A program made the translations under genes and the position numbers. Positions 1,889 through 20,354 of a DNA stretch of 23,481 nucleotides are shown in pieces. The stretch comes from a virus (lineage: Duplodnaviria > Heunggongvirae > Uroviricota > Caudoviricetes), in the IMG/VR virus record IMGVR_UViG_2565956633_000002; one strand, written 5' to 3'. Below the pieces are notes generated by a model. That model did not search any database. It worked only from the letters and a program-made list of their open reading frames with translations, and was not told the origin of the DNA. Position 1 is the stretch's first letter, and every line of letters begins with the position of its first letter.

Positions 1889-2920
1889 CTAATTGCCATC
1901 TTCCAGCAGGCGCACCATTGCCCCTGTTTCACTATCCAGGTTACGGATATAGTTCATGACAATATTTACGTTGGTCCAGCCACCAGCTTGCATGATCTCC
2001 GGTATTGAAACTCCGGCACGGGCCATATCTCGCGCGGCTCCGACACGGGCACTGTGTCCAGACCAGGCCAGGTACCTCTGTCCAGAGTCATCCTTAGCCC
2101 CGTAAATCAATCGGTGAGTTGCTTCAAAAATCCCTTCTAGGGCGCGAGTTGATAGCTGGCTGGTGGGTGATGGCGAGGCAACACCATTTTTTCTGACCCG
2201 GCAAAACAGGTAGTTATTCGGATCATCAGCCACACCAGAGACAGAAATCCATCGCTCGACCAGTTTAGTTACCCCCAGGCTAAGTGCCTTCTCTACACCT
2301 GCGGTGCTAACCAGCGTTTTCGTTCTGCCAATATGGATTAACATTCTCCCACCGTCAGTACGTGAGATATCTTTAACCCTGATCCTGGCAATTTCGGCTA
2401 TACGTAACAGGGTGTTATAAGCAATCCCCAGAAATGCCAGATTACGTATATCCTGGCAGCGATCGCTATTTTCCATGAGTGAACGAACCTGGTCGAAATC
2501 AGTGCGTTCGAACGCTAGTGCCTGTTTTGCACGTTCACCGGCATCAACGTTTTCTTTTCGGATCCGCCGCATAACCAGTGAAACAGCATTGCTATCACTT
2601 GGTCGCGGCAGCCCGGACCGACGATGAAGCATGTTTAGCTGGCCCAAATGTTGCTGGATAGTTTTTACTGCCAGACCGCGCGCCTGAAGATATAGAAGAT
2701 AATCGCGAACATCTTCAGGTTCTGCGGGAAACCATTTCCGGTTATTCAACTTGCACCATGCCGCCCACGACCGGCAAACGGACAGAAGCATTTTCCAGGT
2801 ATGCTCAGAAAACGCCTGGCGATCCCTGAACATGTCCATCAGGTTCTTGCGAACCTCATCACTCGTTGCATCGACCGGTAATGCAGGCAAATTTTGGTGT
2901 ACGGTCAGTAAATTGGACAT
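1889..2920 (-). CDS. cre: Cre site-specific tyrosine recombinase, 343 aa
   Basis: Translation MSNLLTVHQNLPALPVDATSDEVRKNLMDMFRDRQAFSEHTWKMLLSVCRSWAAWCKLNNRKWFP...RLLEDGN is Cre. The DNA is near-identical to the P1 cre sequence I know from vectors. Differences I can see: ASPSPT where P1 has AAPSAT, and a C-terminal N where P1 has D. Confidence 0.97.
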   Translation of the reverse strand: MSNLLTVHQNLPALPVDATSDEVRKNLMDMFRDRQAFSEHTWKMLLSVCRSWAAWCKLNNRKWFPAEPEDVRDYLLYLQARGLAVKTIQQHLGQLNMLHRRSGLPRPSDSNAVSLVMRRIRKENVDAGERAKQALAFERTDFDQVRSLMENSDRCQDIRNLAFLGIAYNTLLRIAEIARIRVKDISRTDGGRMLIHIGRTKTLVSTAGVEKALSLGVTKLVERWISVSGVADDPNNYLFCRVRKNGVASPSPTSQLSTRALEGIFEATHRLIYGAKDDSGQRYLAWSGHSARVGAARDMARAGVSIPEIMQAGGWTNVNIVMNYIRNLDSETGAMVRLLEDGN

Positions 2921-3379: not shown

Positions 3380-3396
3380 AGAATTATTAGAGCAAT
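3380..3396 (-). promoter_or_regulatory. C1 operator (Op99-like)
   Basis: Minus strand reads ATTGCTCTAATAATTC. Confidence 0.65.
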
Positions 3397-3462: not shown

Positions 3463-3479
3463 ATTGCTCTAATAAATTA
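3463..3479 (+). promoter_or_regulatory. C1 operator (Op99-like), upstream of coi-c1
   Basis: ATTGCTCTAATAAATTA, 16/17 to consensus. Confidence 0.7.
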
Positions 3480-3717: not shown

Positions 3718-3927
3718 ATGGCTTTCATTCCACCAACCATCGACGACGTTAGACATTGCTCTAACGCTTTATCTGTAGACCCCGCCGAAACCGACGCTGC
3801 CCGCGCCATTGCTGAACACTACTCAAAGATATCCAATCAGGAGTACCGCATCACCCAAGACGACCTGGATGATCTCACTGACACAATCGAATATCTCATG
3901 GCCACTAACCAGCCAGACTCACAATAA
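3718..3927 (+). CDS. coi: Coi, C1 inactivator, 69 aa
   Basis: 69-codon ORF directly upstream of c1 with Shine-Dalgarno GTGAGG. The size and position are those of P1 coi. Confidence 0.8.
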   Translation: MAFIPPTIDDVRHCSNALSVDPAETDAARAIAEHYSKISNQEYRITQDDLDDLTDTIEYLMATNQPDSQ

Positions 3928-3928
3928 A

Positions 3929-3945
3929 TGCACTAATAAATCTAT
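3929..3945 (+). promoter_or_regulatory. weak C1-operator-like site between coi and c1
   Basis: TGCACTAATAAATCTAT, with the core CTAATAAAT conserved. A near-copy occurs at 23058-23074. Confidence 0.3.
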
Positions 3946-4037: not shown

Positions 4038-4889
4038 ATGATAAATTATGTCTACGGCGAACAACTGTACCAGGAGTTCGTCAGCTTCAGGGATCTCTTT
4101 CTAAAAAAAGCTGTTGCACGCGCCCAACACGTTGATGCCGCCAGCGACGGTCGTCCTGTTCGCCCGGTTGTCGTTCTGCCGTTCAAAGAAACGGACAGCA
4201 TTCAGGCTGAAATTGATAAATGGACTTTAATGGCGCGGGAACTGGAACAGTACCCAGACCTCAATATCCCAAAGACTATTTTATATCCAGTGCCTAACAT
4301 CCTTCGCGGTGTGCGTAAGGTTACGACTTATCAGACAGAAGCTGTGAACAGCGTCAACATGACCGCTGGCCGCATTATTCATCTGATTGATAAGGACATT
4401 CGCATCCAGAAAAGCGCGGGGATCAATGAGCACAGTGCGAAATACATAGAGAACCTGGAAGCAACAAAAGAGCTAATGAAGCAGTACCCGGAGGATGAAA
4501 AATTCCGTATGCGTGTACACGGCTTTAGCGAAACAATGCTGCGCGTCCACTACATTTCCAGTAGCCCTAACTACAATGATGGTAAATCAGTTAGTTACCA
4601 TGTGCCGCTGTGTGGTGTGTTTATCTGCGATGAAACTCTCCGTGATGGAATCATCATCAACGGTGAATTCGAGAAAGCAAAATTTAGCCTTTATGACTCT
4701 ATAGAACCGATCATCTGCGACCGCTGGCCGCAGGCAAAAATATATCGCCTGGCAGATATTGAAAATGTAAAAAAACAAATTGCCATCACTCGCGAAGAGA
4801 AAAAGGTCAAATCAGCCGCATCAGTTACGCGCAGCCGTAACACTAAGAAGGGGCAGCCAGTAAACGACAACCCCGAAAGCGCGCAATAA
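4038..4889 (+). CDS. c1: C1 repressor of lysis (immC), 283 aa
   Basis: Translation MINYVYGEQLYQEFVSFRDLFLKKAVARAQHVDAASDGRPVRPVVVLPFKETDSIQAEIDKW... matches P1 C1 in sequence and length. Strong Shine-Dalgarno GGAGGAGG. Confidence 0.95.
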   Translation: MINYVYGEQLYQEFVSFRDLFLKKAVARAQHVDAASDGRPVRPVVVLPFKETDSIQAEIDKWTLMARELEQYPDLNIPKTILYPVPNILRGVRKVTTYQTEAVNSVNMTAGRIIHLIDKDIRIQKSAGINEHSAKYIENLEATKELMKQYPEDEKFRMRVHGFSETMLRVHYISSSPNYNDGKSVSYHVPLCGVFICDETLRDGIIINGEFEKAKFSLYDSIEPIICDRWPQAKIYRLADIENVKKQIAITREEKKVKSAASVTRSRNTKKGQPVNDNPESAQ

Positions 4890-4921: not shown

Positions 4922-6040
4922 TTATTCAGCTGCCACCGGTTTTAACAAGCCAGCATCGAGCAGTTTACGCGTCAACCACTGCTGGCCTTTACCCGTTAAT
5001 TGAGGCGTCAACCGTATCTGGTAGCCATCTTCATCATCCAGCACCACTTCTTTCACCGTGAAATACCCCGCGTTGATGTACTGCTGGAACGGCACATTTT
5101 TACGTCCACCGGACGCTATCAGGATGCCGTTCTCCCGTAACCAGACAAACAGCGCGTTTTGCTTAAGTCCAACAACCTTTGCAAAATTCCCAATCAGGAT
5201 CCCTTTAGCTACTGATACCCGGTCGGCAAAATCGACTTTAGGAGCGGCGGCCACCAGCTGCTGATTTAGCTGGTGGGCTTTCTGTTCCAGAAGTTGCTTT
5301 TGTTCAGCCAGTTCGGCAGCCAGGCGTAGGGCTTCAGGAAGCGTCTGGGGGATTGCGATCGGTTGCTGTTCTTTTTGTCGGAAGTAGCTGTCTTCCAGTT
5401 TTTCAAAGAATGCCCATGCCTGATCGGTTTCGAGCATTTTAGCGTGGCGGGCTGCGCCGCGTTCTGTCCAGAGGGTGAGTGAGCGAACATTGCGAGCAAT
5501 TTTTACAGAGTAGTTTAAAGCTACTCTGTGCTTCAACTCGCGCAATGATTCTCCTTCAACTTTGAAAAAGTGCTTCCCTTCAACAAAGCGTACTTTGTTC
5601 TCATGATGATTTTGGCGAATACGGATTGTTTCTGTCCCATACCCTCTAGCAAGAGTCTCGGTTGTCACTACACGCACTCCCTGCCATTCCAGAACGGGAA
5701 TTTCATCAGACTGATTCTGAACAACCACCAGCTCCGATTCCTGAACTGAAGGTGCATGAATTTTTTCTGATTTAACGTTAGTTGCTTTCATTCTGTGTGC
5801 CTCCTTGCGTGCTTCGGCTGCGACGGTTGCGTAATTCAGATGACCCTGTTCGAGCAGGTATTCGCGAATATCAGACAGCAGGATACGGTGAACCGCGTTC
5901 TTGTCCTTTCTCCGGTAAAGTTGTTTAGTGATCATGAAGTAGTTGGCTATAACACTGGGAATATCCCTGGTGCTGATACAGGCAGTGTGCTGTTCAATTG
6001 CCTCGATCATCTCTTCACGGGTGACTAATGACGTTCTCAT
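4922..6040 (-). CDS. ant: antirepressor Ant1 (372 aa) with in-frame internal start for Ant2 (ATG at 5790, 289 aa); ORF6N/Bro-N-like and KilA-C-like regions
   Basis: 372-codon ORF translationally coupled to the upstream 73-codon ORF (ATGA overlap at 6037-6040). A perfect internal Shine-Dalgarno AAGGAGG sits 8 nt before Met84. The predicted 41 kDa and 32 kDa products fit P1 Ant1/Ant2. The C-terminal region looks like a KilA-C antirepressor domain. Confidence 0.7.
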   Translation of the reverse strand: MRTSLVTREEMIEAIEQHTACISTRDIPSVIANYFMITKQLYRRKDKNAVHRILLSDIREYLLEQGHLNYATVAAEARKEAHRMKATNVKSEKIHAPSVQESELVVVQNQSDEIPVLEWQGVRVVTTETLARGYGTETIRIRQNHHENKVRFVEGKHFFKVEGESLRELKHRVALNYSVKIARNVRSLTLWTERGAARHAKMLETDQAWAFFEKLEDSYFRQKEQQPIAIPQTLPEALRLAAELAEQKQLLEQKAHQLNQQLVAAAPKVDFADRVSVAKGILIGNFAKVVGLKQNALFVWLRENGILIASGGRKNVPFQQYINAGYFTVKEVVLDDEDGYQIRLTPQLTGKGQQWLTRKLLDAGLLKPVAAE

Positions 6041-6258
6041 AGCCCCTCCTGAACAGAAGCGTTAACAGGGAGGCACCAGTAACTGAGAGAATTGCGTGAA
6101 TCAGTGGAAAAACGGGCAGAGAAAATACATGGGGCGTCAGGAAGCTGAGAGCGGGCCTCATCTTCTGTTGGTGCAATAACGAAGTGATAGTGACGTTTTT
6201 GGCAGGAGTAAAAGCGCCAGATAAATTCAGGATGAGTTGGGGTAGGGATAGTAGCCAT
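6037..6258 (-). CDS. icd: Icd-like protein, 73 aa, translationally coupled to ant
   Basis: ATG at 6258 is preceded by Shine-Dalgarno AAGGAGG then a 7-nt spacer. Product is MATIPTPTHPEFIWRFYSCQKRHYHFVIAPTEDEARSQLP... The 73-aa size and the icd-ant coupling mirror P1 immI. I do not remember the P1 Icd sequence, so the identity is structural only. Confidence 0.55.
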   Translation of the reverse strand: MATIPTPTHPEFIWRFYSCQKRHYHFVIAPTEDEARSQLPDAPCIFSARFSTDSRNSLSYWCLPVNASVQEGL

Positions 6259-6423
6259 ATTGGCAGCCTCCTTAGACGTTGGTATGTAACCACCGCAGAA
6301 GAGACCAATCTTGCTGGCGGTGGACTGTACGGAGTTGGCCTTACTGGCGTCCAAGGTAACCAGCCTACCCGAAGGTAGCCCCATACAGCCCACCATTGTA
6401 GAGGTGTGCGTGTACGCCGATAC

Positions 6424-6447
6424 AAAAAAAAGACGCGAGCGGCGTCT
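6424..6447 (-). terminator. rho-independent terminator, minus strand
   Basis: Minus RNA reads AGACGC-CGCTC-GCGTCT followed by U8 (plus-strand A-run at 6424-6431). Confidence 0.55.
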
Positions 6448-6570
6448 GTATCGCCTTAGACTTAAGCGGGAGGCCAATCCCGGCACCCGTTTTAATGAGG
6501 TGCCTGATAAGCATAAACCGAAAATGCCTCAAGGCGCAAGAGGTCAGGTTCAATGTAACATCGGTAGCTA
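6448..6570 (-). ncRNA. candidate c4-like antisense regulatory RNA (boundaries approximate)
   Basis: This is the transcribed region between a C1-operator promoter and the terminator. It contains AUUGGCCUCC, which is complementary to the icd ribosome-binding site GGAGGCUGCCAAU, and a GUCUAAGG copy also present at that site. The arrangement follows the P1 c4-icd-ant paradigm. Confidence 0.3.
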
Positions 6571-6577
6571 AAAAACA

Positions 6578-6594
6578 CAATTTATTAGAGCAAA
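6578..6594 (-). promoter_or_regulatory. C1 operator (Op51-like) at the head of the immI-like module
   Basis: Minus strand reads TTTGCTCTAATAAATTG, 15/17 to consensus. Confidence 0.65.
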
Positions 6595-6597
6595 TGT

Positions 6598-8082
6598 TCA
6601 TTCATTAAGCCATGCCAGAGCTTCATCAACCTGCGCTTCGTCTTCGACGCTAAGCACTTCATCCTGGGGAACATAATCCGCCAGCATAGCGAAACAATAT
6701 GTATCCCAATGGTCTGGTGAGTGCAGGTTGAGTTTTTTCTTCATATCCTCCTTACTCATCACCTTCCATTGACCTGCGGAGTTAATCCCTACAGGGATTT
6801 TCGACGCTTCCTCAATAGTTTCATTACCCTTATCCAGTCTCATACGACCAGATTTTACGGCCTCTGCGGCTTGAACGTTGGCATAAGCACGTTTATCAAA
6901 GTACAGGCTCTTATCTTCACGGCTATGCATCTTTTTACCCCAGCGTATACGCTGTACGGTAATACCATAATACTCGTACATCAGATCCGCTGTTGCTTTA
7001 CCCAGGCCATCGCCATCTATCGCTATGGTGATATTGGGGAATCGCTCAGGATTACATTCTGCGAAAATTTTGGCGGCAAGCTGCGTTTCTGTAACGTCTG
7101 TGTATTCCAGCATTCGATAGTTGATTACACGGCGTTTATTTCGCTGGCCGGACACCATCATGATATTGATAACTGACTTATCCCGTCCCGTACCACCAGC
7201 AACGTCCACACATGCAAGCCAGCCCCATCCTTTGGCAATCTTAACTTTCCGCCGCGTTGCACGTTCAACCTCATCACGTCCAAGAAGGAAGCCGTCCTGT
7301 GATTTAGGGAATAGGCCGCGCACCTTAATCATGTACATAGGGTTATCACGCCCGCCGTACTCCGCCAGCTTCATTTTGATAAATTCTGGCGTTACCAGCG
7401 GTGATTCCTCACTGTTAAGCGTGATCGCCGTATAAACGCCATCTGGGTTACCAGGACGCTTGGCCAGTTTATGGTGAGTATCGTAGAAATAGCCGCTTGG
7501 GCGTGTAGGCTGTGACAGTAATAAGATGCGGTTATCCTGTCCGGTAAGAGCACCGGTGATGATACCGAAAGCTCTATCACTGACACCGGAGGCTTCATCG
7601 ATAATATACAGAAGATGATCTGCGTGTTCACCGGCGAGAGCTTCTTCACTTCCCAGACGAAAGCCCTTCGGTACTACAGTCCATACACCTTTACCAGTAA
7701 CCTCATAGAAAGCGGTTTCTGTCAGAACAAAATAATCAGCAAGCCATGGAAAACGGCTGGTGGCAGTAGCCCAGTTTATCTTGATGTACTTGAATATACC
7801 GGTCATTACCTGCTGAATTTTGTTCGCAACGATAATGGCACGGGCACCTGGATACATGATTATGAACAACATGATCATGATAGAAGTCATGTCTGATTTC
7901 CCGGTACCGTGACCAGACGAAACAGATGTCTTGCTACCCTGTTCCTGCACAGACTCAATAATCAGATCCTGCTGCCAGGTAGGTGTTTTGCCGAACAAAA
8001 CATCAGCGGCAGCAATCCAGTCATAACGATATAGCGCCACCAGCTCGCGCCAACGTGGATCCGTTACGCAACTTCTGGCCAT
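6598..8082 (-). CDS. pacB: PacB, pacase / terminase large subunit, 494 aa
   Basis: Terminase-type ATPase with Walker A GHGTGKS and a C-terminal nuclease region. The 494-aa length and the one-base overlap with the upstream gene (TAATG) match P1 pacB. Confidence 0.9.
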
Positions 8083-9275
8083 TAATCATCATCCCCGTAT
8101 AGCTTGCGGGTAACTTCTTCGTCTTCCTCCTCGTCTTCGTCCAGGTCTTGTTCCAGCCATGGGTCGTTTGATACACCTTCAGTATCAACATCTCCATAAC
8201 CGCCTGTATCAACGATATCGGCGATTTCTTCCCTACGCTGCTCAATCCACAATGCGGCATCGGCGCGGCGGTTGGCGGCCCGTTCTCGCGCAACTTTGTC
8301 CAGATCTTCAAGAGAAGGGCCACCGACGGCTGTTTGCCTTTCCTCATCATCGGTATTGGTCTTAGGAGCACGCAGATCGGCTTTGATTTGCTCCAGCATC
8401 AGGGGCGGTACTTTCCCTCCATGCGCCTCGATGAATTCAGCTGCCTCCAGCACTGACCAGTTGTTTTCACGCTTTCGTTCGTATGCCAGCTTAACAATGC
8501 CAGCTTGCCCCATAGACAAAGCGTGCTTTTCCGCCTCCCGGCTTTCTTTTCGATAGTTATTCCGGATGCTGTAAATGGTGTTGATCAGGCTGCTTATCTG
8601 CGCGGAACAGCTGTTTAGCATGCTCGCGATACGGTATTCAGGCGGAGTTCCTTCATCATCGTCTTTTTGCTGATCGCGCATTTCCTGAACCAAGCGAATA
8701 CACGTATCCCTGGCGTTCTCCAGCATAAGGAGATGAGAGAGAGACTTTTCCAGAAGAGTGGTTTCCAGAACATCAGCCCCGGACCGACGCAACATAGCGC
8801 GCGCGGCCTTCCGCGCTTCAACGTTATCTATCAGGTAATCGCCAGCTTCGAATTCAAAGCGTTCACCATCATCATCCAGGGTGTCGCGTTCCAGGCGATC
8901 ACGTAAGGTCCGGTGGGCGCGGGTGATCACGTCATGATCATCAGAACGATCATTTATGCGCTTATTCTGGCGCTTCGCGTTCTCGACTGCGGCACTGACA
9001 ACAGCATTAACTCTTTGTTTTTCAGCCATTTCAGCCACAATGTGATCACCTGCACGTTGATCATTAGCGTGATCAATGATCATGCTTTTTAGTGGTTTTC
9101 TGACAGGCTTATTTGGCTTACGGCTGTCCGCTGTTCCGGTGTCTTCTTTGAATGCACGGAGATAACGACGTGCGGTGTTTGGGTTGAGATTAAACTCGGC
9201 GGCATATTGTGCGATGGTGTAACCACCATCTCGCGCCAGGCGAGCAAAATTCTTCTTGTGATCGTCCCAGGTCAC
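8082..9275 (-). CDS. pacA: PacA, pacase small subunit, 397 aa (GTG start)
   Basis: GTG start with Shine-Dalgarno AAGGAAG. The product has an N-terminal helix-turn-helix-like region and an acidic tail, and the pac site lies inside the ORF as in P1. Confidence 0.88.
8896..9083. other. pac packaging site: two clusters of TGATCA/GATC hexamers flanking the presumed cut region
   Basis: TGATCA at 9043, 9058, 9070 and 9078 on one side. On the other side, GATC-containing hexamers at 8896, 8924, 8935 and 8948. This is the known 4 + 3 Dam-site architecture of P1 pac. Confidence 0.65.
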
Positions 9276-9871: not shown

Positions 9872-9901
9872 ATTAAAGAAATAGCAATACATTAGAGCAA
9901 T
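9872..9901 (-). promoter_or_regulatory. tandem C1 operators (Op88-like)
   Basis: Minus strand reads ATTGCTCTAATGTATTGCTATTTCTTTAAT. Confidence 0.6.
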
Positions 9902-11935: not shown

Positions 11936-13498
11936 ATGAAAATGACAAGTATTCAACAACGTGCAGAGCTTCATCGTCAAATCTGGCAAATTGCTAACGA
12001 TGTCAGGGGTTCGGTCGATGGATGGGATTTTAAGCAATACGTTCTGGGCGCACTTTTCTACCGTTTTATCAGCGAAAATTTTTCCAGCTATATTGAAGCC
12101 GGTGATGACAGCATCTGTTATGCGAAACTGGATGACAGCGTAATTACTGATGACATTAAAGACGATGCCATCAAAACCAAAGGCTACTTCATCTACCCAA
12201 GTCAGCTTTTCTGCAACGTAGCTGCGAAAGCAAATACCAATGACAGACTGAACGCAGATTTAAACAGCATCTTCGTTGCTATCGAAAGCTCTGCTTACGG
12301 TTACCCTTCAGAAGCTGACATCAAAGGTTTGTTTGCTGATTTCGATACCACCAGTAACCGCCTGGGTAACACCGTTAAAGATAAAAATGCCCGCCTGGCT
12401 GCGGTTCTGAAAGGGGTTGAAGGGTTAAAACTTGGTGACTTCAACGAACATCAGATTGACCTGTTCGGTGATGCCTATGAGTTCCTGATTTCTAACTATG
12501 CGGCAAATGCCGGTAAGTCAGGCGGTGAGTTCTTTACACCGCAGCACGTCTCTAAGCTGATTGCACAACTGGCAATGCACGGCCAGACCCACGTTAACAA
12601 AATCTACGACCCGGCAGCAGGTTCCGGTTCGCTGTTGTTGCAGGCTAAAAAACAGTTTGATGACCATATCATCGAAGAAGGCTTTTTTGGTCAGGAGATC
12701 AACCATACGACCTATAACCTGGCGCGTATGAACATGTTTTTGCACAACATCAACTACGACAAGTTTGATATCAAGCTGGGTAATACACTGACTGAGCCGC
12801 ACTTCAGAGATGAAAAACCGTTTGATGCCATCGTTTCTAACCCGCCGTATTCGGTGAAATGGATTGGCAGCGATGACCCGACGCTGATTAACGATGAACG
12901 TTTTGCCCCGGCTGGCGTTCTGGCCCCCAAATCCAAAGCTGACTTTGCGTTTGTATTACATGCGCTGAACTATCTTTCTGCCAAAGGTCGTGCTGCGATT
13001 GTCTGCTTCCCGGGCATTTTTTACCGTGGCGGCGCGGAGCAGAAAATCCGTCAGTATCTGGTTGACAATAACTATGTCGAAACCGTGATTTCACTGGCAC
13101 CGAACCTGTTCTTTGGCACCACCATTGCCGTAAATATTCTGGTGCTGTCTAAACATAAAACGGATACCAAAGTTCAGTTTATTGACGCCAGCGAACTGTT
13201 CAAAAAAGAGACTAACAACAACATCCTGACCGATGCCCATATCGAAAAAATTATGCAGGTATTTTCCAGCAAGGAAGATGTTGCCCATCTGGCAAAATCT
13301 GTCGCGTTTGAGGCCGTTGTCGCGAATGACTATAACCTGTCAGTGAGCAGCTATGTAGAAGTGAAAGATAACCGCGAAACTATCGATATTGCTGAGCTAA
13401 ATGCTGAGCTGAAAACCACGGTCAGCAAAATCGACCAGTTGCGTAAAGATATTGATGCGATTGTGGCTGAAATTGAAGGCTGCGAGGTGCAGAAATGA
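11936..13498 (+). CDS. hsdM: Type I restriction-modification methyltransferase subunit HsdM, Type IC (EcoR124 family), 520 aa
   Basis: N6-adenine methyltransferase motifs are present: [10 protein letters not shown] (AdoMet binding) and VSNPPYS (motif IV). The 520-aa length and N-terminus [25 protein letters not shown] fit EcoR124-type HsdM. Confidence 0.93.
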
Positions 13499-14706
13499 GC
13501 GAGTTGAGTTATCTGGAAAAATTGCTGGATGGGGTTGAAGTTGAGTGGTTGCCATTGGGGGAAATAACCAAATATGAACAGCCAACAAAGTATTTGGTAA
13601 AAGCAAAAGATTATCACGACACATATACCATACCGGTTCTTACTGCCGGAAAAACATTTATTCTTGGATACACAAATGAGACTCATGGTATTTATCAGGC
13701 ATCAAAGGCACCTGTAATAATTTTTGATGATTTCACCACCGCTAATAAATGGGTGGATTTTGACTTTAAGGCAAAATCATCGGCCATGAAAATGGTTACA
13801 TCATGTGATGATAATAAAACCTTACTGAAATATGTTTACTATTGGCTCAATACATTACCAAGTGAATTCGCAGAGGGAGACCATAAACGCCAATGGATTA
13901 GTAATTATTCTCAAAAAAAAATCCCAATCCCCTGCCCGGATAATCCGGAAAAATCCCTTGCCATCCAGTCTGAAATCGTTCGGATTCTGGATAAATTTAC
14001 TGCACTTACCGCTGAGCTTACCGCTGAGCTTAACATGCGTAAAAAACAGTACAACTATTATCGCGACCAGTTGTTGAGTTTTAAAGAGGGTGAGGTTGAG
14101 TGGAAGACTTTGGAGGAGGTGCTAGTAGATAAATTTTGGATTATGCCCGCAACTCCGAAGTTTGATGACAATGGTGAAATTCCATATGTCACTTCAAAGA
14201 ATATTAGTGGTGGGAACATCGATTTTGAAAGAGTTAAGCATATTTCCCGGGACGATTTTTTGAGCATCTCCAAAAATAGACCGATCTTGAAAGGTGACTT
14301 TCTTATAAGCATGATTGGTACTATTGGTGAGATTGCTCGAGTAAAATGTCTCGATCCTGATTTTTACGGTCAAAACATGTACCTAATCAGGTTGAATGAG
14401 GAATTACTTCACCCTAGATATTTTCTGCATTTCTTCGACTCACCAAGAATGAAATTTTACTTTAAGTCAGTAAAAAACAATTCAGGGCAAGGTTATCTTA
14501 AAGCAAATAACATTGATGGTTTATCTATTCCTTTACCATCGATTGATGAGCAACAAAAAATTGCCTTTATCCTCGATAAGTTCGACACCCTGACCAACTC
14601 CATCACCGAAGGTCTCCCGCGTGAAATCGAGTTGCGCCAGAAACAATACGAGTACTACCGTGATTTACTGTTCAGTTTCCCGAAACCTGAAACTGTCAGT
14701 AATTAA
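13495..14706 (+). CDS. hsdS: Type I specificity subunit HsdS, Type IC, 403 aa, two target-recognition domains
   Basis: ATGA overlap with hsdM. The central conserved region carries the TAEL-TAEL repeat typical of Type IC HsdS, and there are duplicated conserved motifs (QKQYEYYRD / KKQYNYYRD). Confidence 0.9.
14005..14028 (+). repeat. tandem 12-bp repeat (CTTACCGCTGAG x2) encoding TAEL-TAEL in the hsdS central region
   Basis: Exact tandem duplication read directly from the sequence. In the EcoR124I / EcoR124II paradigm, two versus three copies of this repeat change the spacer length of the recognition site. Confidence 0.85.
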
Positions 14707-14828
14707 TTGACCATTGCTACCGACCGGGCCACCTTAACACCCGGTCAGTATATAGGCTATTTTTTTACACGCTGGAAGTCACCATTAACACCCTTCCGGC
14801 CCTTGCCAGACGGCACAAAGGATGCGCT

Positions 14829-17800
14829 ATGACTCATCAGACACACACCATTGCTGAATCCAATAACTTTATCGTTCTTGATAAGTACATCAAAGCTGAG
14901 CAAACAGGCGACAGCTATCAGAGTGAATCGGACCTGGAACGGGAACTGATTCAGGACCTGCGAAATCAGGGCTATGAATTTATACCCGTAAAATCACAGT
15001 CGGCGATGCTGGCCAACGTTCGGGAACAGCTTCAGAACCTCAATGGTGTGGTGTTTAATGACAGCGAATGGCGGCGTTTCACGGAGCAGTATCTGGACAA
15101 CCCGAGTGATGGCATTCTGGATAAGACCCGTAAAATCCATATCGACTATATTTGCGACTTTATTTTTGATGACGAGCGTCTTGAGAACATCTATTTGATA
15201 GATAAAAAGAATCTCATGCGCAATAAGGTGCAGATTATCCAGCAGTTTGAACAGACGGGTTCTCATGCTAACCGTTATGACGTCACGATCCTGGTTAATG
15301 GTTTACCGCTGGTGCAAATCGAACTAAAAAAACGCGGGGTGGCGATTCGTGAGGCTTTCAACCAGATACATCGTTACAGTAAAGAGAGTTTTAACAGCGA
15401 AAATTCCCTGTTTAAGTATCTGCAACTGTTTGTCATTTCTAACGGCACCGATACCCGTTATTTTGCCAACACGACAAAGCGCGATAAAAACAGTTTTGAC
15501 TTCACCATGAATTGGGCGAAATCAGACAACACGCTGATTAAAGACCTCAAAGACTTTACCGCTACCTTTTTCCAGAAACATACTCTGCTGAATGTTCTGG
15601 TGAACTACAGCGTTTTTGACAGTAGTCAGACGCTACTGGTGATGCGACCGTACCAGATTGCCGCCACCGAACGAATCTTATGGAAAATCAACAGCTCCTA
15701 TAAAGCGAAAAACTGGTCTAATCCCGAAAGCGGTGGCTTTATCTGGCACACTACCGGTTCTGGTAAAACACTGACCAGCTTTAAAGCCGCGCGTCTGGCA
15801 ACAGAACTGGACTTTATTGATAAAGTCTTCTTCGTGGTCGACAGGAAAGACCTCGATTACCAGACCATGAAGGAATACCAGCGTTTTTCGCCAGACAGCG
15901 TCAACGGCTCGGAAAATACCGCAGGTCTTAAACGAAATCTGGATAAGGACGATAACAAAATTATCGTCACCACTATTCAGAAACTTAATAACCTGATGAA
16001 AGCAGAAAGCGACCTGCCTGTATACAATCAGCAAGTGGTGTTTATATTTGATGAATGCCACCGCAGCCAGTTTGGAGAAGCGCAGAAAAACCTGAAGAAG
16101 AAATTCAAACGCTATTATCAGTTTGGTTTTACCGGCACACCTATTTTCCCGGAAAACGCTTTAGGCTCAGAAACGACCGCCAGCGTATTTGGCCGTGAAT
16201 TGCATTCGTATGTGATTACCGATGCGATTCGAGATGAAAAAGTGCTTAAATTCAAGGTGGACTACAACGATGTGCGGCCACAGTTTAAGTCTTTAGAGAC
16301 AGAAACCGACGAGAAAAAACTGAGTGCGGCTGAAAATCAGCAGGCGTTTCTTCATCCCATGCGTATACAGGAAATTACGCAATATATTCTGAATAACTTC
16401 CGCCAGAAGACCCACCGTACTTTCCCAGGTTCCAAAGGCTTTAATGCCATGCTGGCAGTGAGTAGCGTGGATGCCGCGAAAGCCTATTACGCGACGTTTA
16501 AACGGTTACAAGAGGAAGCAGCTAATAAATCGGCTACCTATAAACCGCTGCGTGTTGCGACAATCTTCTCCTTTGCCGCCAATGAAGAACAAAATGCCAT
16601 TGGTGAAATTTCCGATGAAACTTTTGATACCAGCGCAATGGACAGCAGTGCTAAAGAGTTTCTGGACGCTGCAATTCGTGAATATAACAGCCATTTTAAA
16701 ACTAACTTTAGCACCGACAGTAACGGTTTTCAGAACTACTATCGTGATTTAGCCCAGCGGGTTAAAAATCAGGATATCGATCTGCTAATTGTCGTGGGGA
16801 TGTTTTTAACCGGCTTCGATGCTCCAACATTGAACACGCTATTCGTCGATAAAAACTTGCGTTTTCACGGCCTGATGCAGGCATTTTCCCGCACCAACCG
16901 TATTTATGATGCAACTAAAACCTTCGGTAATATCGTCACTTTCCGGGATCTGGAACGCTCAACTATTGATGCCATAACGCTGTTTGGTGACAAAAACACC
17001 AAAAATGTGGTGTTAGAAAAGAGTTATACAGAGTATATGGAAGGCTTTACTGATGCTGCTACAGGTGAAGCTAAACGCGGCTTCATGACAGTAGTTTCAG
17101 AACTGGAACAACGGTTCCCTGACCCTGCCAGTATTGAAAGTGAAAAAGAGAAGAAAGACTTCGTTAAACTGTTTGGCGAATACCTGCGTGCCGAGAACAT
17201 CCTGCAAAACTATGATGAATTTGCCACGCTAAAAGCCCTGCAACAAATCGATCTTAGCGATCCTGTTGCGGTAGAAAAATTCAAAGCAGAACATTATGTG
17301 GATGATGAAAAGTTCGCTGAATTGCAAACAATTCGTCTCCCTGCTGATCGCAAGATTCAGGATTATCGTTCTGCCTATAACGATATTCGCGACTGGCAGC
17401 GCCGTGAGAAAGAAGCTGAGAAAAAAGAGAAATCAACCACTGACTGGGATGACGTAGTTTTTGAGGTCGATTTGCTGAAGTCTCAGGAAATAAACCTGGA
17501 TTATATCCTTGGACTGATTTTCGAACACAACAGACAAAATAAAGGCAAGGGCGAAATGATCGAAGAGGTCAAACGCTTAATTCGTTCAAGCCTGGGGAAC
17601 CGAGCGAAAGAGGGCCTGGTGGTCGATTTTATTCAGCAAACGAACCTGGATGATTTACCAGATAAAGCCAGTATCATTGAGGCATTCTTTACGTTTGCTC
17701 AACGCGAACAGCAACGTGAAGCAGAAGCATTGATAAAAGAAGAAAATCTCAATGAAGAAGCAGCAAAACGCTATATTCGCACGTCTTTAAAACGCGAATA

Positions 17801-17945
17801 CGCCACCGAAAATGGCACAGAATTAAACGAAACATTACCAAAACTTAGTCCATTGAATCCGCAATATAAAACGAAAAAACAGGCAGTTTTCCAGAAAATC
17901 GTCTCGTTTATTGAGAAGTTTAAAGGCGTAGGCGGAAAAATATAG
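14829..17945 (+). CDS. hsdR: Type I restriction endonuclease subunit HsdR, Type IC, 1038 aa
   Basis: Superfamily 2 helicase motifs are present (Walker A TGSGKT, DEAH-box FDECHRSQ). The 1038-aa length matches EcoR124I HsdR as I recall it. Shine-Dalgarno AAGGA. Confidence 0.93.
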
Positions 17946-18195: not shown

Positions 18196-18212
18196 AGATT
18201 TATTAGAGCAGC
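18196..18212 (-). promoter_or_regulatory. C1 operator
   Basis: Minus strand reads CTGCTCTAATAAATCTT, 14/17 to consensus. Confidence 0.55.
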
Positions 18213-20288: not shown

Positions 20289-20354
20289 ATTGCTCTAATA
20301 AAAAACGTGATGAGTGTACATCACGTTTTAAAAATATGGAATTATTAGAGCAAT
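20289..20354. promoter_or_regulatory. pair of divergently oriented C1 operators flanking a hairpin
   Basis: ATTGCTCTAATAAAAAA on the plus strand at 20289-20305. Hairpin CGTGATG-AGTGTA-CATCACG at 20306-20325, with an A-run before and a T-run after. Minus-strand ATTGCTCTAATAATTCC at 20338-20354. Confidence 0.6.

Follow-up and report, generated by a model that had tools for sequence, protein, structure and literature searches.

The minus strand from 6594 to 4922 most probably carries a complete antirepressor switch of the P1 immI type, a reading to which a probability of about 0.82 is assigned. The window in which it lies is the whole stretch of 23,481 nt that was analysed (IMG/VR record IMGVR_UViG_2565956633_000002). 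The switch consists, in order, of a C1 operator, an IsrK-type leader with the a1/b1 boxes and a terminator, the C4 RNA, the a2/b2 boxes over the icd ribosome-binding site, icd, and the antirepressor gene. A preliminary description had marked two complementary segments here, one upstream of a terminator and one at the icd start. The upstream segment belongs to an a1/b1 target copy packaged as an IsrK-type terminated leader RNA, and its partner is C4 with its a'/b' sequences, not the icd ribosome-binding site.

Nothing at the locus is new in kind. A C4 RNA with an IsrK/seqA-type target copy and with a2/b2 over the icd ribosome-binding site is a known textbook circuit of phage immunity, covered by curated Rfam families. 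The practical value lies in a correct annotation and in the recognition of an extra C1-operated antirepressor module of non-P1 specificity adjoining pacB.

Genomic Setting

The window is a portion of a P1-like phage-plasmid; Escherichia phage vB_EcoM-673R5 matches it with 97% identity across 96% of its length. The genes and sites around the switch are the following.

9275..8082, minus strand: pacA
8082..6598, minus strand: pacB
6578..6594, minus strand: site TTTGCTCTAATAAATTG, resembling a C1 repressor operator and deviating from the P1 consensus at 2 positions
3' of pacB, minus strand: non-coding leader of 340 nt, followed by a 73-aa ORF and a 372-aa ORF
6037..6258, minus strand: icd, cell-division inhibitor gene, 73 aa, with its AUG at 6258
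4922..6040, minus strand: antirepressor gene, 372 aa, with the Pfam domains ORF6N (70 bits) and ANT/KilAC (108 bits)
4038-4889, plus strand: C1 repressor gene
1889-2920, minus strand: Cre recombinase

Since pacB directly precedes c1 in P1 itself, the block of leader, icd and antirepressor gene is an insertion relative to P1. The 73-aa product shares 82% identity with P1 Icd (BLASTP) and scores 49.8 bits with the NCBIfam model phage_ICD_like against a cut-off of 25; Pfam gave no match for Icd or C1. The 372-aa ORF is, judged by its domains, an antirepressor, and its ATG overlaps the stop codon of icd according to the ORF coordinates.

The operator-like site at 6594..6578 precedes the module and corresponds in position to Op51/Oc4 of P1 immI; in P1, Oc4 is found just upstream of a1/b1/c4. 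With a criterion of no more than 3 mismatches to ATTGCTCTAATAAATTT, nine such sites were counted in the window versus 0.14 expected by chance (1378-1394, 3380-3396, 3463-3479, 3927-3943, 6578-6594, 9885-9901, 18196-18212, 20289-20305 and 20338-20354). Some of them cluster upstream of c1, and two form a facing pair at 20289-20354.

An intact type I restriction-modification system occupies 11936-17945 of the plus strand, and this hsd stretch aligns with the Hsd genes beside phd/doc in the annotated relative vB_EcoM-673R5.

11936-13498, plus strand: hsdM
13495-14706, plus strand: hsdS
14829-17945, plus strand: hsdR

The C4 Antisense RNA and Its Targets

The real effector of the locus is a C4 antisense RNA lying between the two marked segments. 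Its parts and the boxes downstream of it are as follows.

6313..6400, minus strand: C4 antisense RNA (Rfam C4, RF01695)
6349..6356, minus strand: C4 b' CCUUGGAC, within the hairpin-2 loop of 12 nt, complementary to b1 and b2
6335..6341, minus strand: C4 a' AGGCCAA, single-stranded, 3' of hairpin 2, complementary to a1 (7/7) and to a2 (7 bp with one G-U)
6302..6308, minus strand: box a2 UUGGUCU, a few nt 3' of C4, in the same position as P1 a2
6277..6270, minus strand: box b2 GUCUAAGG, overlapping the icd Shine-Dalgarno sequence AAGGAGG (6273..6267)

The stretch 6400..6313 matches the full RF01695 model with 75.9 bits against a gathering score of 45, and C4 folded alone adopts the canonical Rfam structure (z = -3.5). 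It is the sole C4 match in the window; neither the sequence nor the structure of C4 was found at 6478..6468, where the isrK model matches. Membership in the C4 class is further borne out by the b' loop and the single-stranded a', which match two downstream boxes, one of them over the ribosome-binding site of the next gene. The spacing of the boxes is also close to that of P1: by the coordinates given here a1 and b1 are separated by 9 nt and a2 and b2 by 24 nt, the P1 values being 7 and 22 nt. By the test of ARAGORN, which returned zero tRNA or tmRNA genes, the structured stretch does not resemble a tRNA. The preliminary description, which had recognized the logic of c4, icd and ant here, was thus right about the type of immunity locus, but it exchanged effector and target and missed the true C4.

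Two further features of this region may be recorded. Within 6306..6265 of the minus strand, local pairing is possible between the icd Shine-Dalgarno sequence (AAGGAGGC) and the 3' part of a2 (GGUCUCUU), leaving b2 partly in the loop; with z = -1.4, this hairpin is not significantly more stable than shuffled sequences. The 5' end of C4 (AUGGUGGGCUGUAUGG) has a conserved AUG, one of two that, like those of Gifsy-1 orf45, are spaced 12 nt apart. The upstream ORF that begins at the C4 AUG (6396..6037, minus strand) is probably not a conserved coding feature, its length being unconserved across 58 modules.

The IsrK-Type Leader RNA

The leader upstream of C4 contains the second copy of the C4 targets within a short terminated RNA.

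6426..6503, minus strand: IsrK-type leader RNA, a1/b1 target copy with terminator (Rfam isrK, RF01394)
6471..6477, minus strand: box a1 UUGGCCU, within the hairpin-2 loop of the IsrK RNA, fully complementary (7/7) to AGGCCAA of C4 a'
6454..6461, minus strand: box b1 GUCUAAGG, in the linker that joins hairpin 2 to the terminator, complementary to the C4 b' loop with one G-U
6424..6447, minus strand: intrinsic terminator, stem AGACGC/GCGUCU followed by a U-run (terminator scan and Rfam isrK alignment)
6510..6539, minus strand: putative promoter of the IsrK-like leader, -35 TTGCGC (6539..6534), 18-nt spacer, -10 TATGCT (6515..6510)

The isrK model covers 6503..6426 with all of its positions (1-77 of 77) and scores 60.8 bits against a gathering score of 50. 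Folded alone, the RNA forms three hairpins in both the MFE and the centroid structure, and the last of these is the intrinsic terminator with its U-run, as the terminator scan also found. The upstream segment 6478..6468 constitutes the loop and the 3' stem of hairpin 2; in the isolated RNA, UUGGCC forms the loop itself and b1 is part of the linker. The central segment of the RNA complements the C4 region further downstream, a1 matching a' and b1 matching b', as seen both in the leader MFE and in the co-variation described below. The identity of a1, AUUGGCCU, is based on its position relative to the annotated P1 a1 and on co-variation in 35 modules, and b1 is positionally equivalent to P1 b1.

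Some elements of the preliminary description were confirmed at this point. An intrinsic terminator does stand just 3' of the upstream segment (a 6-bp stem at 6447..6431, then a T-run), and the direct repeat GUCUAAGG accompanying both segments occurs at 6461..6454 and 6277..6270 as the sole two copies in the 23.5-kb window; these copies are b1 and b2, and the repeat is of functional significance. The upstream element is probably a separate short RNA. Its assumed role as the antisense effector was not upheld by the comparison with the P1 c4 elements, in which the upstream segment maps to a1, a copy of the C4 target.

Rfam has a family of its own for the P1 element, c4-a1b1 (RF03163), whose best score here (20.5 bits at 6516..6463) is below the gathering score of 46.7. 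The P1 a1/b1 region scores 51 bits with c4-a1b1, and isrK is sub-threshold there. Because of the sub-threshold c4-a1b1 score, the equivalence to P1 a1/b1 rests on position, complementarity and the isrK match. The stretch 6503..6426 works like a1/b1 though it is filed under isrK.

The leader RNA would start near 6503. The hexamer positions of the putative promoter are conserved in an alignment of four phages, with a weak match to the consensus (3/6 and 4/6), and a consensus promoter scanner reported zero minus-strand promoters in 6000-6700. When the leader is read through (6503..6240), the predicted MFE is -101.2 kcal/mol (z = -3.7), with a1-a' and b1-b' paired in cis.

In the vB_EcoM-673R5 record (ON470615.2, L127:33041-33140), hairpin 2 of the IsrK region has a 1-nt deletion in its stem (CCTCCCG to CCT-CCG) and the terminator T8 is shortened to T6. 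No isrK call at the gathering score is obtained there because of these single-base homopolymer deletions, which are probably sequencing errors; numerous CDSs of the record, c1 and pacA among them, are split as well.

Co-Variation among Related Modules

Related modules were retrieved from IMG/VR by a pattern anchored on the invariant 5' stem and tetraloop of C4. The 120 loci obtained represent 88 unique and 35 non-redundant modules; among the latter, a' occurs in about 17 versions and b' in about 24. Box a1 was placed by a contiguous-helix search, start codons were chosen with ATG preference, and pairing energies were computed on short defined segments. RNAduplex applied to whole segments of 70-90 nt yielded extended duplexes interrupted by large interior loops, and z-scores that were not informative.

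In nearly all of the 35 modules, a' is matched over 7-10 nt by the complementary boxes a1 and a2, and the b' loop by b1 and b2; b2 ends 5-11 nt ahead of the start codon in most of them. Cognate pairs were compared with non-cognate ones for each recognition element:

a' with a1: cognate -11.3 vs non-cognate -5.9 kcal/mol, p = 2e-22
a' with a2: cognate -9.8 vs non-cognate -6.9 kcal/mol, p = 2e-12
b' with the translation initiation region (TIR): cognate -15.8 vs non-cognate -8.2 kcal/mol, p = 5e-17
b' with the upstream region (b1): cognate -13.4 vs non-cognate -11.4 kcal/mol, p = 7e-6

The same relation is visible in the four-phage alignment of the window with RCS47, D6 and Stx2 phage F039. In this order, a' reads AGGCCAA, GUCUCAA, GUCUCAA and GUCCUAA, and a1 reads UUGGCCU, UUGAGAC, UUGAGAC and UUAGGAC. 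Boxes a1 and a2 track a', b1 and b2 track b', and the cross-tables of C4 against targets are diagonal-dominant, while the icd start region AAGGAGGCUGCCA(A/U)UAUGGCUACU is invariant. The co-variation of the boxes with C4 supports a P1-like mechanism for the module of the window. The approximately 35 specificities, with their clean inter-molecular co-variation, illustrate how heteroimmunity classes are encoded.

The C4 cores of the P1/P7 type (IMG/VR loci L003-L087) are nearly identical apart from their recognition sequences. They have two versions of a', CUGUCAA and CUGCUAA, which occur with at least seven b' loops (UCACUAAC, UCACAAUC, UCGUAAGU, UCAUUCGU, UCAUGUAC, UCACAAGU and UCUUGUAC). Since a' and b' are combined variously and all four target boxes always match, the recognition boxes of this type seem to reassort independently.

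The phage vB_EcoM-673R5 (L128:32812-33020 and L127:33158-33245) and two P1-like contigs of IMG/VR (L054:1830-2036 with 8454-8644; L022) each carry two complete C4 systems that differ in specificity, and every system has an icd of its own. One system in these genomes is the canonical immI (c4-a1b1 and C4, between simB and ant1) and the other is the pacB-adjacent isrK and C4 module, as in the window.

Proposed Mechanism

In the proposed switch, transcription would start downstream of the C1 operator, and the IsrK-type leader (6503..6426) would be made first, with a1 exposed in the loop of a hairpin and b1 in the linker after it, ahead of the intrinsic terminator. Transcripts reading through the terminator would reach C4 (6400..6313), whose excision presumably yields a stable RNA of about 77-88 nt. 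The b' of the hairpin loop and the single-stranded a' may then pair with b2 (6277..6270) and a2 (6308..6302), and occupation of b2 over the Shine-Dalgarno sequence would block icd translation and, through coupling and polarity, the expression of the antirepressor. The upstream copy could act in two ways. In cis, the pairing of a1/b1 with a'/b' would lock the read-through leader closed; in trans, the short terminated IsrK-like RNA could bind C4, or the C4 part of the long transcript, and counter repression, as experiments have demonstrated for the IsrK of Gifsy-1. The promoter, C4 processing and the sign of any effect in trans are inferred. Which way the latter acts, and by what mechanism, is uncertain, because the authors of the Gifsy-1 study favour remodelling of the orf45 mRNA by IsrK, not titration of the C4-like RNA, and because constitutive STnc1160 did not antagonise IsrK (PMC4825925).

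A purely cis-acting scheme of the P4 kind has a modest chance of being correct. According to it, C4 binds a1/b1 on the nascent transcript and causes termination at 6447..6424, so that C4 limits its own read-through into c4, icd and ant, and the short RNA is a by-product lacking a trans function. The architecture does resemble P4 seqA-CI-seqC, IsrK is regarded as a seqA homolog in the literature (a structural homolog in PMC4825925), a1/b1 stand immediately 5' of the intrinsic terminator, and they co-vary with C4. Against it, the short IsrK of Gifsy-1 works in trans, and the behaviour of constitutive STnc1160 is unlike that of a termination factor antagonised by IsrK. The sequence by itself does not separate a mainly cis action of the a1/b1 copy (folding or termination) from a trans action (decoy or activator).

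It is less probable still, and on the whole unlikely, that the module works as proposed for Gifsy-1, with an IsrK-like RNA opening the leader so that ribosomes load at the AUG at 6396 and translate through to icd and ant. The frame from this AUG is indeed open for 46 codons and runs in frame into and through the icd AUG; moreover, Gifsy-1 orf45 begins at the equivalent AUG pair, and anrP expression needs orf45 translation. However, this ORF differs in length among 58 modules, from 14 codons to more than 76, and has just 14 in the P1 type, a Shine-Dalgarno sequence before 6396 is not obvious, and the AUGG belongs to the closing stem of C4.

Proposed Direct Pairing of the Leader with the icd Start Region

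The P1-like reading replaces the original proposal that the two segments are near-perfect inverted complements and that the upstream AUUGGCCUCC loop itself binds the start region of icd and its Shine-Dalgarno sequence, whether in cis or as a terminated RNA in trans, repressing icd in the manner of c4. The letters of both segments were given correctly, GGGAGGCCAAT at 6468-6478 and ATTGGCAGCCTCC at 6259-6271 of the plus strand; in the minus-strand RNA they read AUUGGCCUCCC (6478..6468) and GGAGGCUGCCAAU (6271..6259).

6259..6271, minus strand: downstream segment GGAGGCUGCCAAU, part of the icd Shine-Dalgarno sequence (6271..6267) and the spacer to the AUG

The complementarity itself is weaker than had been claimed: the segments form only 5+5 bp around a 3-nt bulge or, alternatively, one 7-bp helix (GGCCUCC/GGAGGCU, including one G-U pair, -13.6 kcal/mol). 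When all 16-nt windows of the leader were scanned against the icd SD-AUG segment, the upstream segment was the best partner (-17.0 kcal/mol), followed by the C4 loop (-15.9), and the pairing of the window type is the strongest of the 35 module types (-15.2). However, 39% of dinucleotide-shuffled upstream leaders pair equally well with the SD-AUG segment (mean -16.7, sd 2.1), so that the complementarity is not above chance. Across the 35 modules, the a1 hairpin shows no cognate preference for the SD-start segment (-9.61 cognate vs -9.70 kcal/mol non-cognate, p = 0.49).

The pairing is also lost in the relatives, an outcome that the preliminary description had itself named as refuting it. Between a1 and the icd ribosome-binding site it amounts to -15.0 kcal/mol in the window versus -8.4, -8.7 and -6.2 in RCS47, D6 and Stx2 F039, where the icd start region is the same and a1 is different. 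The region of the downstream segment is invariant among these relatives of differing specificity and does not co-vary with a1. Two window-type variants (L039 and L092) have a changed spacer, CCAAU to CCAUU, with no compensating change in a1. The folding check gave a similar answer, as the leader MFE is devoid of the a1-SD helix, a1 being paired with a' and b1 with b'. Given also that the element matches isrK and not C4, direct pairing as the mode of icd repression is highly improbable and, by its lack of conservation, close to refuted. It is just as doubtful that in this specificity class the a1 loop has gained a second complementarity, to the icd Shine-Dalgarno sequence and spacer; if this were true, the IsrK-type RNA or the cis leader could occlude the icd ribosome-binding site directly, adding a C4-independent repression to the mimicry of the C4 target.

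Comparison with Known Systems

The pair of isrK and C4 is present in about 170 phage records, mostly those of Stx-converting lambdoid phages, and both elements are explicitly annotated in LC710660. Padalon-Brauch et al. and Hershko-Shalev et al. are said to be among the origins of the RNA families concerned. The c4 and c4-a1b1 motifs were catalogued by Weinberg et al. 2010 (PMC2864571), and the Rfam models of C4 and isrK detect the CI and seqA relatives (PMC10111431).

The immunity region of P4 (seqA, CI RNA with seqB, seqC) resembles the window in having a processed small RNA with its own target copies on both sides. The CI RNA of P4 acts mainly via premature transcription termination, not via occlusion of a ribosome-binding site, and neither icd nor an antirepressor gene is found downstream in P4. 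The termination depends on CI and is mediated by seqA (PMC4825925, PMC10111431).

In the Gifsy-1 system (IsrK - orf45/STnc1160 - AnrP), IsrK, which base-pairs with the orf45/STnc1160 region downstream of it, switches on translation of the antirepressor in trans (Hershko-Shalev et al. 2016, PMC4825925). The short IsrK acts there on the read-through transcript and triggers prophage induction (PMC4825925). The window shares with this system a full-length match to the IsrK-based Rfam family, three hairpins, a partly read-through terminator, an RNA middle complementary to the downstream C4-like region, and an antirepressor downstream. The closed 'structure A' of the isrK-orf45 read-through transcript (PMC4825925) was reproduced in the prediction for the window. 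Unlike Gifsy-1, the window has icd between the C4 region and the antirepressor gene, and its module, with a C1 operator, belongs to a plasmid prophage of the P1 kind.

The switch is comparable to P1/P7 immI (Op51/Oc4 - a1 b1 - c4 - a2 b2 - icd - ant1/ant2) in the order of all parts; the annotated P1 region runs from the Oc4 operator and promoters through a1, b1, c4, a2 and b2 over the Shine-Dalgarno sequence to icd and ant, and a1/b1 are labelled 'putative' targets in that annotation. In P1, RNase P excises a stable C4 RNA of approximately 77 nt from the precursor transcript. This RNA reportedly binds a2/b2, blocks icd translation and so prevents ant expression, as is said to have been found by Citron and Schuster in 1990 and Biere et al. 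in 1992. The notes of the P1 GenBank record agree with the action of C4 on a2/b2.

Both systems have the same C4 fold, whose second hairpin carries b' in its loop and is followed by a single-stranded a', together with a1 in a hairpin loop and b1 7-8 nt downstream of it, a2 just 3' of C4, b2 22-23 nt beyond a2 and over the Shine-Dalgarno sequence, a C1 operator-like site upstream, and an Icd that is 82% identical. The window a' is AGGCCAA vs CUGUCAA in P1 and its b' is CCUUGGAC vs UCACUAAC; because the recognition sequences differ, the module has an immunity specificity different from that of P1. The leader of the window passes the gathering score of isrK and fails that of c4-a1b1, the reverse being true of P1, and the antirepressor of the window is an ORF6N and KilAC protein. 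Unlike immI of P1, the module is located between pacB and c1 as an additional one, and the closest complete relative of the window also carries the canonical immI.
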